A stretch of 64,000 nt of DNA from a virus (IMGVR_UViG_3300033076_000838:175836-239835); one strand, 5' to 3'. Positions 4,791-56,335 are shown, numbered from the stretch's first letter. The notes: generated by a model not told the origin, from the sequence alone. Numbers and translations: made by a program.

Positions 4791-4798
4791 TATAAATA
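4791..4798 (-). promoter_or_regulatory. Putative late promoter TATTTATA
   Basis: Octamer lies 22 nt upstream of the 4769 start; the same motif recurs before many structural genes. Confidence 0.65.
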
Positions 4799-17147: not shown

Positions 17148-18849
17148 ATATATTTTAGGAATAGCATGTGGGTATCATGATTCAGCTGCATGTTTAGTAA
17201 AAGATGGAAAAGTTTTAGGAGCAGTAGAAGAGGAAAGATTTACAGGAATTAAACATGATTCTTCGTTTCCTACTAATGCAATTCAATGGCTTTATAACGA
17301 AATGAAAATTACCGGTGCAGATGTATCGGTAGTTTCGTTTTATGAAAATCCTACTTTAAAGTTAGAACGTATTGAAGAAACTACTAAAAGAGGTGGTATA
17401 TTACAATACTTTAAACGTAATGCTATTCTAAAAGAAAATAAACAAAATTATAGGGAAACCGAACGTAAGATTTATGAAATCACAAATGATAAAATAATTC
17501 TTTCATATGGAGACCATCACCTTTCCCATCTTGCATATTCATATTATACATCACCATTTGATAGAACTGCAATACTTTCGGTAGATGGTGTGGGTGAGTG
17601 GGAAACGACAGTTTTAGCATTTGCTGAAAATAACAAAATCACAAAAATTCAAAATATTAAATTCCCACATTCGTTGGGTATGATATATTCTGCATTCACT
17701 GCATTCTTAGGATTTAAACCAAACGAAGGTGAATATAAGGTAATGGGACTTGCACCTTATGGTAATCCAAATACTTACACAAAACACTTTAAGGAAATTA
17801 TTAAGGAAATCGAAAATGGTGGGTTTGAAATCAATATGGATTATTTTACATATGATTACTCAAACAATTCCATGTTCAACGAAAAGTTGGGATTATTATT
17901 AGGTATTCCAAATAGATTACCAGAAGATGAATTATTACAATGCCATAAAGATTTAGCAGCAACAATTCAATCACAATATGAATATTATTTTTTCCGTTTG
18001 TTAAATAAAATGTTTGCAACAAACCCATCTAACAATATTTGTTTAAGTGGTGGGTGTGCATATAATGGAACTGCAAATGGAAAAATAACAAATGAAACCC
18101 CTTACAAACAATTATGGATTCCACCTGCTCCATCTGATGCAGGTTCTGCAATTGGATGTGCGTTGGAATATTATTATACTCATAGTGAAATAAAAGTAAG
18201 AGTTGATAATACAAATCCTTATTTAGGTCCACATCATTCTAACGATGAAATCAAAGAAGAATTAGATAAACATCAAATTGATATATGGTATGAATACAAA
18301 AATCACTCCGAACTTATTCCAATCATTTCTAAACAAATTACGGATGGAAATGTTATTGGCTGGTATGAGGGTAGAATGGAATTTGGTTCTCGAGCACTCG
18401 GTAATCGTTCTATACTTGCTAACCCAAGAGACCCACAAATGAAAAGTAGGGTAAATAGAGTAATCAAAAAAAGAGAAGGTTTTAGACCTTTTGCTCCAAT
18501 TGTAAAAGAAGAAGAGAGATTAAAATATTTTGATTACAAACTATTAGTTCCATATATGAATCAGGTTGTTAAGGTAAAAGAAGAACATAGAAATAATTTA
18601 CCTGCAATCACACATATAGATGGTTCTGCTAGAATTCAAACTCTAAATAATAGACAACATAGAAGAATGTATTCTTTACTTAATCAATTAGAGATTGATA
18701 ATGGATACCCAATCGTTTTAAATACATCATTCAATTTAAAGGATAAAACTATTGTAAATTCACCAAAAGATGCAATAGAAACATTTTTAGATTGTGAGAT
18801 GGATACATTAGTGTTGGGAAATTATATAGTTAAGAAAAAAATAAAATAG
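17134..18849 (+). CDS. Carbamoyltransferase (NodU/CmcH/TobZ family)
   Basis: ILGIACGYHDSAA, EEERF, HHLSH, VDGVGE, SLGMIYS, EGEYKVMGLAPYG, LSGGCAYN, DAGSAIG, EFGSRALGNRSILA, REGFRPFAP, LNTSFN. Confidence 0.95.
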   Translation: MMTNKYILGIACGYHDSAACLVKDGKVLGAVEEERFTGIKHDSSFPTNAIQWLYNEMKITGADVSVVSFYENPTLKLERIEETTKRGGILQYFKRNAILKENKQNYRETERKIYEITNDKIILSYGDHHLSHLAYSYYTSPFDRTAILSVDGVGEWETTVLAFAENNKITKIQNIKFPHSLGMIYSAFTAFLGFKPNEGEYKVMGLAPYGNPNTYTKHFKEIIKEIENGGFEINMDYFTYDYSNNSMFNEKLGLLLGIPNRLPEDELLQCHKDLAATIQSQYEYYFFRLLNKMFATNPSNNICLSGGCAYNGTANGKITNETPYKQLWIPPAPSDAGSAIGCALEYYYTHSEIKVRVDNTNPYLGPHHSNDEIKEELDKHQIDIWYEYKNHSELIPIISKQITDGNVIGWYEGRMEFGSRALGNRSILANPRDPQMKSRVNRVIKKREGFRPFAPIVKEEERLKYFDYKLLVPYMNQVVKVKEEHRNNLPAITHIDGSARIQTLNNRQHRRMYSLLNQLEIDNGYPIVLNTSFNLKDKTIVNSPKDAIETFLDCEMDTLVLGNYIVKKKIK

Positions 18850-18851
18850 TA

Positions 18852-18859
18852 TATTTATA
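18852..18859 (+). promoter_or_regulatory. Putative late promoter TATTTATA
   Basis: Exact motif at the start of a structured 100-nt leader. Confidence 0.65.
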
Positions 18860-18862
18860 TTC

Positions 18863-18927
18863 GAAACCTTGTGGTTAAACATTCAGTGTCCTTTGTGGCA
18901 TTTGAGTTGGAGAAACACCAACGAATG
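18863..18927 (+). promoter_or_regulatory. Structured 5' leader RNA (long-range pairing arm plus three-way junction)
   Basis: 18866-18877 is complementary to 19753-19764. Local stems: CATTC/GAATG, AGTGTC/GGCATT, GTTGG/CCAAC. Confidence 0.55.
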
Positions 18928-18959
18928 AATTTTTAAATACAAATAAAATAAGGAAAAAT

Positions 18960-19745
18960 ATGAAACAATCAGTATGGACTAACGGGAGTCCTGGAAACCC
19001 GCAGGCTTTTATTACAAAAAGCAAACAAAGAATCAAACAATTCGAAGGTCAGGTCTATCTTAATGATGGAGATGAATATCAAATCGAATTATTCAACCCA
19101 ACATCAAATCACATTCTTGCTAAAATCAAAATCGATGCGGATTACCTATCGGGTGGCGGTATTGTATTAAGACCAGGTGAAAGAGTGTTTTTAGAACGTT
19201 TTTTGGATTCAAATAACAAATTTGTATTCAGAACATATGAGGTAGGAAAAGAAGCAGTTAATACTGGTGCTTTAGCAAATAATGGATATGTTAAAATTGA
19301 GTTTTATCAAGAACAACCGAAATTCAATTCGTACCCATCTTATCCAAATAGAACAATTTATACAGGAAATAGTGGTACATATACTCTAAATAATGGTATA
19401 ACATATACTACAAATACTTTGGGTAATACATCCTTTACTACATCAGGAACAAATCTTACTACATCAACTGCGTATTATAATAATATTACTCCAACATCTA
19501 TGGTAAGTAATAATAAAGTAGAAACGGGATTAACTGAAAAAGGTGGAAGTTCTAATCAAACATTTACAAATTCAGATAGAGAATTTTATTCATACTCATT
19601 TCATAATGTAGCATGGAGAATTCTACCAACATCACAAAAACAATATCGTAAAGAAGAACTTTCAATTGCGTATTGTGGTGAATGTGGTGCCAAAAGAAAA
19701 AAAGATTCACACAAGTTCTGTCCACATTGCGGAACTAAATTCTAA
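18960..19745 (+). CDS. Hypothetical protein: beta-rich N-terminal domain, Thr/Asn-rich linker, C-terminal double zinc ribbon
   Basis: C-terminal CGECG...FCPHCG. Confidence 0.75.
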   Translation: MKQSVWTNGSPGNPQAFITKSKQRIKQFEGQVYLNDGDEYQIELFNPTSNHILAKIKIDADYLSGGGIVLRPGERVFLERFLDSNNKFVFRTYEVGKEAVNTGALANNGYVKIEFYQEQPKFNSYPSYPNRTIYTGNSGTYTLNNGITYTTNTLGNTSFTTSGTNLTTSTAYYNNITPTSMVSNNKVETGLTEKGGSSNQTFTNSDREFYSYSFHNVAWRILPTSQKQYRKEELSIAYCGECGAKRKKDSHKFCPHCGTKF

Positions 19746-19771
19746 ACAAATATAATCACAAGGTATTCACT

Positions 19772-19799
19772 AAGGAGAGCAGAAATGTTCTCCTTTTTT
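19772..19799 (+). terminator. Intrinsic terminator
   Basis: AAGGAGAGCA-GAAA-TGTTCTCCTT followed by a T-run. Confidence 0.85.
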
Positions 19800-19832
19800 A
19801 TTTAAAAAAAATGAAAAATATTTTACAAAATA

Positions 19833-19864
19833 TTTGGAAATATGAAATATTCTTCGTATGTTAG
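19833..19864 (+). promoter_or_regulatory. Degenerate Bacteroidota-type promoter
   Basis: TTTG-N20-TATGTTAG, with the same GAAATAT...TTCG spacer as the other copies. Confidence 0.5.
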
Positions 19865-56147: not shown

Positions 56148-56196
56148 TTCCAAATATTTATTTTTCAGATTTTTTTACGTTTTGTATATTTTTATA

Positions 56197-56329
56197 TATT
56201 TATATACAAAGGGGGTAGGGGGTTAGCTACAAAGCTAATAACTACTACACTATAACTTATACTATTTTATTAATACTATATTTTATATAAAGCTTAATAA
56301 AGCCTATCTCCGTAATCTCGGAAATATAT
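56197..56329 (+). other. Non-coding element: late-promoter motif, G5-TA-G5, small hairpin, AT-rich tract
   Basis: TATTTATA at 56197, GGGGGTAGGGGG at 56211-56222, TTAGC/GCTAA hairpin, ACTAT-like repeats. Confidence 0.45.
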
Positions 56330-56335
56330 TTGGTT

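Follow-up and report, generated by a model that had tools for sequence, protein, structure and literature searches.

A self-contained cassette with complementary transcript ends

We analyzed a stretch of viral DNA of 64,000 nucleotides (nt) (IMGVR_UViG_3300033076_000838:175836-239835), referred to here as the window, with positions counted from its first letter. The stretch belongs to a genome of 287 kb. Positions 18850-19801 hold a self-contained unit that consists of a promoter, a leader of about 95 nt, one open reading frame (ORF), and a terminator. Two short segments of this unit, one in the 5' untranslated region (UTR) and one in the 3' UTR, are complementary and would enclose the whole gene when paired. 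The unit contains the following features.

18850-18859, plus strand: promoter-like motif TATATTTATA, ending 3 nt upstream of the helix (10 sites in the window against 2.25 expected)
18863-18877, plus strand: arm 1, the 5' strand of the long-range helix, with its core at 18866-18877 and an outer GAA at 18863-18865 (sequence, fold probability 0.98, covariation)
18875-18936, plus strand: three-way-junction leader, with P1 at 18875-18885/18926-18936, P2 at 18886-18890/18897-18901, and P3 at 18906-18910/18918-18922
18938-18953, plus strand: A-rich linker with two possible local partners of arm 1, UACAA at 18938-18942 and AUAAGG at 18948-18953 (Shine-Dalgarno region)
18960-19745, plus strand: ORF of 261 amino acids with a beta-sandwich N-terminal domain, a disordered and variable T/S/N-rich linker, and a C-terminal zinc ribbon (alignment, AF2 model)
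19753-19768, plus strand: arm 2, the 3' strand of the long-range helix, with A19765 bulged (sequence, fold, covariation; 57 cassettes)
19772-19801, plus strand: intrinsic terminator with a 10-bp stem and GAAA loop (hairpin 19772-19795) and a T run, starting 3 nt past arm 2

The core of arm 1 is ACCTTGTGGTTA at 18866-18877 and that of arm 2 is TAATCACAAGGT at 19753-19764. Both were read from the sequence and were also listed by a repeat finder (I24). The cores form 12 pairs, including one G-U (G18874-T19756), and past the bulged A19765 the helix is extended by GAA/TTC (A18865-T19766, A18864-T19767, G18863-C19768). A preliminary description of the locus had given this same pairing, G-U and bulge included, and it matches the sequence letter for letter. 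Arm 2 begins 7 nt past the stop codon (19743-19745) and ends 3 nt before the terminator, which lies 7 nt from the arm 2 core. The long-range helix is part of the minimum free energy (MFE) fold of the 938-nt transcript, with a pair probability of 0.98, and the arm duplex has an energy of approximately -18 kcal/mol.

Arm 1 starts 3-6 nt past a recurrent promoter motif and is therefore placed at the 5' end of the transcript, of which it is predicted to form the first bases. The TATATTTATA motif occurs in the window at 4791, 8345, 18850, 21395, 25218, 32223, 37261, 46012, 54024, and 56195. At eight of the 10 sites, an ORF in the same orientation starts 17-24 nt downstream, and the sites at 18850 and 56195 precede a long leader. 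The second of these leaders (56195-56330) is 131 nt long and starts with G-rich GGGGGTAGGGGGTTAGC...GCTAA. It too looks structured, but it differs from the three-way-junction leader studied here.

Single-sequence statistics alone do not place the helix beyond chance, and comparative data decide the matter. The window is 30% G+C and yields 159 overlapping matches for 12-bp helices that include no more than one G-U and have a spacing of 300-1500 nt. Among the 343 ORFs of the 287-kb genome, the cassette ranked 7th by the score of an uninterrupted helix between 5' and 3' flanks and 42nd by RNAduplex energy, a measure that is inflated by loopy duplexes. The 5' and 3' flanks of other ORFs in this genome (G000:C1) can likewise form uninterrupted helices of 13 bp, such as GAGACTCTAATGG/CTATTAGGGTCTC and GATGATGAAATCA/TGATTTCATTATC; these are located on the minus strand near 123405-123647 (reverse-complement coordinates) and on the plus strand at 82766-83176. 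The arms and the three-way junction of our cassette are single-copy in the 287-kb genome, which ruled out a repeated element such as a PeSL-like promoter/stem-loop cassette.

The cassette family is carried by uncultured large phages

We collected relatives of the cassette by a protein scan of IMG/VR, which gave 10 loci, followed by a DNA-pattern scan and two profile scans (A1, A4). Each profile scan detected 215-325 relatives (325 for A4), of which 80 were taken in. The resulting set holds about 100 distinct cassettes, whose proteins are as little as about 40% identical to that of the window. A scan of cellular genomes added one further relative that is 27% identical. This relative (L210:1322-1482) lies on a contig binned as a Thermoplasmatales metagenome-assembled genome, and the contig is probably viral and mis-binned. 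The cassette family was essentially absent from the 185,579 cellular species genomes searched for hosts and prophages, and a DNA search of phage GenBank entries returned a single weak match, to a Prevotella phage (Lak-A2), that we judged to be chance. The cassette family is viral and is carried by uncultured large phages. Its neighborhoods are diverse, with 27 upstream and 29 downstream types over 65 loci. Because the flanking genes differ so widely, the promoter-to-terminator unit acts as an autonomous cassette, much like a moron.

Pfam returned only weak zinc-ribbon matches below the cut-off for the encoded 261-residue protein, no PHROG was assigned to it, and its AF2 model (predicted local distance difference test score of 67) had no PDB match at E <= 0.001. 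Matches in the ESM Atlas were restricted to viral hypothetical clusters. BFVD returned one marine-phage SHOCT protein (3e-16) and, with E values down to 3e-9, uncharacterized proteins from giant viruses, nudiviruses, and iridoviruses. In the alignment, the T/S/N-rich middle linker is hypervariable.

The layout of the window, with one arm in the 5' UTR and the other in the 3' UTR just upstream of the terminator, is the same in 57 cassettes. In the homologs, the distance from the end of a TATA(T/C)TTA-like motif to arm 1 is 2-9 nt (median 5). In the 57 cassettes, 4-13 nt (median 7) separate the stop codon from arm 2. A hairpin of varying sequence, with a mean dG of -14.7 kcal/mol, comes 0-9 nt past arm 2 in the homologs. 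The 3' UTR (arm 2, spacer, and terminator; window 19753-19801) is identical among cassettes whose proteins are 58-78% identical (L008/L146, L024, L026), and the leader is likewise more conserved than the ORF between the window and these loci. UTR identity in excess of ORF identity points to either strong constraint on the UTRs or recombination inside the cassette.

The arms covary through complete sequence turnover

We found 49 distinct arm pairs over the approximately 100 IMG/VR cassettes. All of them are complementary, and many are unrelated in sequence. In close relatives the arms are nearly unchanged, even at 58% protein identity, and the single changes observed there are wobble-compatible: G-U to A-U (L001), U-A to U-G (L016), and G-C to G-U (L115). 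More distant relatives carry double changes, such as GAAACCUUGUUA with UAACAAGGUUUC, GAAAUCUUAUGAU with AUCAUAAGAUUUC, and GACC... with ...GGUC. Other cassettes have arms that are unrelated to those of the window and still complementary to each other: GGAACCUCAC/GUGAGGUUCC, UUACGUUAACUC/GAGUUAACGUAA, GGGUGCCCACC/GGUGGGCACC, GAAAGCCUCGUGUGGC/GCCACACGAGGCUUUU, AUAGAGCCCUUCUA/UAGAAGGGCUCUAU, and CUGGGGAGCC/GGCUCCCCAG.

The pairing was scored in two ways. Over 30 arm classes, cognate partners scored 913 compared to 652 +/- 24.5 for permuted partners (0 of 100,000 permutations). We also ran MAFFT on the 5' flanks and, separately, on the 3' flanks, giving 54 distinct rows in an alignment that was not fitted to the structure. 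In this alignment, standard pairs occupied 93.7% of the cells for the 12 core pairs, and 11 of the 12 pairs had changed on both sides. Cells with double changes numbered 36, against 5.0 +/- 1.9 in shuffles (0 of 500), and slid controls were paired in 29-44% of cells. The helix was also present in the full-length MFE fold of all 10 homologs with different arms that were folded, with a probability of at least 0.95. Shuffles and permutations remove phylogenetic dependence only in part; for the helix itself this is a minor concern because there are many unrelated arm families.

Since more than 100 related phages keep the pairing, some through full turnover of the sequence, we consider the helix real and selected as RNA pairing. 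The preliminary description had proposed a dedicated RNA-level, end-to-end helix around a zinc-ribbon gene and had named covariation of the arms in homologs as the check. The arms are conserved, they covary, and they outlast complete sequence turnover, all of which bears out that proposal.

Two sites recognized by one protein would also be expected to change together, and the presence of the cassette in many genomic contexts could suggest mobility. We therefore considered whether the arms act at the DNA level, as half-sites of a DNA-binding protein or as the recombinase ends of an invertible or mobile cassette. Several features make this highly improbable. The arms lie exactly inside the predicted transcript and adjoin a covarying RNA junction. 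Helix length is 10-16 bp in the 57 cassettes, and length and register slide across 10-18 bp in the wider arm set, as expected of a helix rather than of a fixed site. The arms have fully replaced their sequences, while the sole encoded protein has kept its zinc ribbon. One-sided changes are mostly G-U wobbles on the coding strand; over 30 classes, the helix formed by the plus strand is longer than that of the minus strand in 19, equal in 6, and shorter in 5. Terminal inverted repeats of mobile or invertible DNA were ruled out as a candidate: the arms have the promoter and the terminator on their outer sides, cassette homology runs through both of these so that the repeats are not the ends of the unit, no recombinase is present in the unit, and none of the approximately 100 cassettes has an inverted orientation.

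A three-way-junction leader adjoins arm 1

The leader that follows arm 1 folds into a three-way junction that covaries. In the leader alignment (A3), 97.5% of cells are paired, 17 of the 20 pairs have changed on both sides, and none of 500 shuffles matched this result; slid controls gave 35-46%, and RNAalifold agrees with P1, P2, and P3. The junction bases are nearly invariant (GAGU before P3), and the junction is kept in lineages that lack the long-range arms. No Rfam family passed its gathering threshold in the window, and a search of 18800-19850 relaxed to E up to 10 gave nothing but noise. This covarying leader is a new element. On the comparative evidence, both the long-range helix and the three-way junction are shown to be under selection as RNA pairings. 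The junction may bind a factor, possibly the encoded zinc-ribbon protein, and autoregulation of the gene by this protein through the leader is a reasonable idea.

P1 adjoins arm 1 without a spacer and overlaps it by 3 nt. Because the two helices are contiguous, they can stack to about 23 bp, and the 5' domain is probably one stacked rod of this length with the two hairpins as caps. Such a rod has the geometry of an end-to-end stem, and we asked if it could be a processing stalk that RNase III or another double-strand-specific nuclease cuts for trimming or decay, as in rRNA stalks or the icaR duplex. In Staphylococcus aureus icaR, the 3' UTR pairs with the Shine-Dalgarno region, masking it and creating an RNase III site that turns expression off, so a UTR-UTR duplex can be a substrate of this enzyme (PMC3868564). 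The phage arrangement is unlike that of icaR, in that the 3' arm pairs with the 5' end and the Shine-Dalgarno sequence is left unpaired. The helix itself, at 10-16 bp, is short for RNase III and comes to about 23 bp only if stacked on P1. The unit needs no excision because it has its own promoter and terminator, and cleavage would take away both protective ends. The unrelated arm families share no internal-loop or sequence signature, and the lineages with a local hairpin described below have no equivalent stalk. We consider a processing stalk quite unlikely.

Circularization of the RNA had been suggested as another outcome of the end-to-end pairing. A covalent circle found no support: we saw no ribozyme, intron, or ligation signature, Rfam gave no match, and the arms are plain helices with sequence turnover.

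Some lineages replace the long-range helix with a local hairpin

Two lineages lack the long-range arms, a CUAGAGG..UCUAG clade and a UUAGAG..CUCUAA clade, whose mutual differences are compensatory. The 27%-identical relative likewise lacks them. All three carry a local 5'-terminal hairpin at the position of arm 1, between the promoter and P1. In the 27%-identical relative, this hairpin (GTTCTAA...TTAGAAC) is placed after a TATAGTATAAAT motif. In the protein tree, the hairpin lineages fall on one side of the midpoint root, beside clades with unrelated long-range arms. One locus (L161) has lost both arm 2 and the terminator. Because lineages without long-range arms carry a local hairpin in the same place, a helix at the extreme 5' end, placed so as to stack on the junction, is the invariant feature of the family. 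Most members draw the second strand of this helix from about 875 nt downstream, in the 3' UTR beside the terminator.

Possible roles in termination and translation

We also considered whether the helix contributes to 3'-end formation. In such a termination or insulation role, arm 2 would pair with the 5' end at the polymerase exit and thereby aid 3'-end formation, and in some relatives the helix would itself be the terminator stem. Fifteen of the 49 arm pairs have no hairpin after arm 2, and in 7-8 of these 15 a G+C-rich arm 2 runs directly into TTTT, compared to 2 of the 34 arm pairs with a hairpin (Fisher p = 0.002, uncorrected for phylogeny). The cassette in the window has a strong canonical terminator 3 nt past arm 2, and the helix is not needed for termination there. 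The helix would have to nucleate over about 850 nt within a pause. We consider this role very unlikely. Deep clades that lack a local terminator hairpin and have a T run directly after a G+C-rich arm 2 include L264 (1-1956), L228, L266, L292, L235, and L220 (3' flanks).

Arm 1 also has local partners near the start codon. UUGUG (18869-18873) can pair with UACAA in the A-rich linker, and CCUUGU (18867-18872) can pair with AUAAGG in the Shine-Dalgarno region. These pairings could form a translation-licensing switch, in which nascent arm 1 would pair with the linker or Shine-Dalgarno region and damp initiation until arm 2 captured arm 1 in the stronger long-range helix and freed the ribosome-binding site (RBS), so that only complete messages would be translated. 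Complementarity of arm 1 to the interval from -16 to +3 covaries across 18 arm families (208 versus 163.9 +/- 7.9; 0 of 200,000 permutations and 0 of 2000 shuffles). Families whose start regions do not resemble a Shine-Dalgarno sequence still match (CUCGU/ACGAG, UCUGG/CCAGA, UUAACU/AGUUAA, GUGGUGC/GCACUAU), and locus L159 shows a three-way change, with UCUUAU in arm 1 and AUAAGA in both arm 2 and the RBS. The folding results do not favor such a switch. Between the nascent and full-length forms, RBS accessibility at equilibrium does not rise consistently: it goes from 0.72 to 0.79 in the window and is unchanged or lower in the other homologs. Arm 1 pairs with UACAA next to P1, and not with the Shine-Dalgarno sequence, in the MFE fold of the window's nascent leader. 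The local helix between arm 1 and the RBS is only 4-8 bp, with several families at 4 bp or fewer, and the local-hairpin lineages cannot use this mechanism. We regard licensing of translation as unlikely.

A combination of these two roles can be envisioned, with the gene-spanning helix as an active co-transcriptional device. It would serve as a terminator stem with an 850-nt, gene-holding loop in relatives of the L264, L228, L266, L292, L235, and L203 types, and in the window's clade competition for arm 1 would license translation on finished transcripts only. We judge this combined device unlikely. If the helix is a terminator stem, 3'-end formation would report on the state of the 5' end.

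The preliminary description had listed fold-back inhibition, as known from type I toxin mRNAs, among the possible precedents. This does not fit the locus. The product is 261 amino acids long, and in the closed form the Shine-Dalgarno region is open: it lies outside the long-range helix, and the RBS is unpaired with a probability of 0.79 in the full-length fold. The closed form of hok mRNA is translationally inert, and if anything the reverse would apply to the phage mRNA. A toxin mRNA of the hok/aapA type was ruled out, as the product appears to be a soluble beta-sandwich and zinc-ribbon protein and not a small hydrophobic peptide, and we noticed no conserved antisense unit. The phage unit resembles hok and Helicobacter pylori aapA1 (PMC5416894, PMC6733600) in that the 5' end of the full-length mRNA pairs with its 3' end and the nascent RNA could form other, local pairings instead. 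It differs in having no small hydrophobic toxin, no evident antisense RNA, no sequestered Shine-Dalgarno sequence, and no apparent 3' trimming signal.

A proposed 5'/3'-UTR clamp that may protect the transcript

We tentatively favor the model that the helix is a clamp linking 5' UTR and 3' UTR that hides the 5' end of the mRNA and stabilizes complete transcripts, and we give this model slightly less than an even chance. It is favored because, among cases understood from experiments, the hbs mRNA of Bacillus subtilis comes closest. In that mRNA, 14 nt of the leader form a duplex (dG -19 kcal/mol) with sequence right upstream of the terminator; disrupting this pairing leads to faster RNase Y cleavage and decay, and compensation restores the stability of the primary transcript (PMC5737220; Braun, Durand and Condon 2017). 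The phage cassette has a helix of 12-15 bp (14 bp in hbs) with an energy of about -18 to -19 kcal/mol, a short monocistronic mRNA, and a structured leader alongside. It differs from hbs in that its 5' arm opens the transcript, while the hbs arm is downstream of two hairpins. The phage element is also viral, occurs in about 100 uncultured phages with complete turnover of the arms, and adjoins a three-way junction, and its effect on decay is proposed by analogy. Compensatory changes, which define an interaction of the hbs kind, are seen here exclusively as natural covariation.

The opening 12-15 nt of the predicted transcript are paired to a stretch of the 3' UTR that lies past the stop codon and ahead of the terminator hairpin, and this helix runs straight into P1 of the junction leader. 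According to the clamp model, the helix would remove the single-stranded 5' end and hold it beside the 3' terminator hairpin. A complete transcript would then offer no entry for 5'-end-dependent decay (by RppH and RNase E/G, or by enzymes of the RNase J/Y type) and would be stabilized; incomplete transcripts would not be.

In Escherichia coli ompA, B. subtilis aprE, and the phage SP82 leader, helices that sit right at the 5' terminus, where the overhang is short or absent, act as stabilizers. The local-hairpin lineages of the phage family look the same as these 5'-terminal stabilizer hairpins. Most of the family is unlike them, as the second strand is located about 875 nt downstream in the 3' UTR.

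A number of observations weigh against the clamp model. The transcription start site is placed by a motif. A local hairpin would be a cheaper way to protect a 5' end, and the fact that most of the family nevertheless keeps the long-range form suggests a function that a hairpin cannot supply. The significant complementarity of arm 1 to the ribosome-binding region is not something that a pure stability model would predict. In several clades, a U run right after arm 2 together with the absence of a terminator hairpin hints at a role in termination. Finally, the strand asymmetry of G-U pairs is not phylogenetically independent, and five classes favor the minus strand.

Relation to known UTR-UTR interactions

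A 5'/3'-UTR interaction is of a kind that is already known. In the literature we found hbs, icaR, and the type I toxin mRNAs, and no description of an end-paired phage mRNA. The main text of a 2023 catalogue of candidate viral structured RNAs (PMC10690425) mentions no long-range or zinc-ribbon-associated elements, its supplementary tables being outside this search. What is new is the 5'-terminal position of the helix, its junction partner, the breadth of natural covariation, and the existence of variants with a substituted hairpin or a U tract.

Very few bacterial-type mRNAs are known to close on themselves by UTR-UTR pairing, and each of these (hbs, icaR, and the type I toxin mRNAs) comes from one organism or a narrow group. 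In the phage family, evolution has performed the compensatory-mutation experiment dozens of times, with 49 arm pairs enclosing the same gene. Searches limited to single intergenic regions miss structures of this type, whose strands lie on either side of a gene. The family thus provides a natural system for asking what end-to-end closure does, be it stability, quality control of complete transcripts, timing of translation, or termination. The lineages with a local hairpin and those with a U tract and no terminator hairpin are natural variants that separate these roles.

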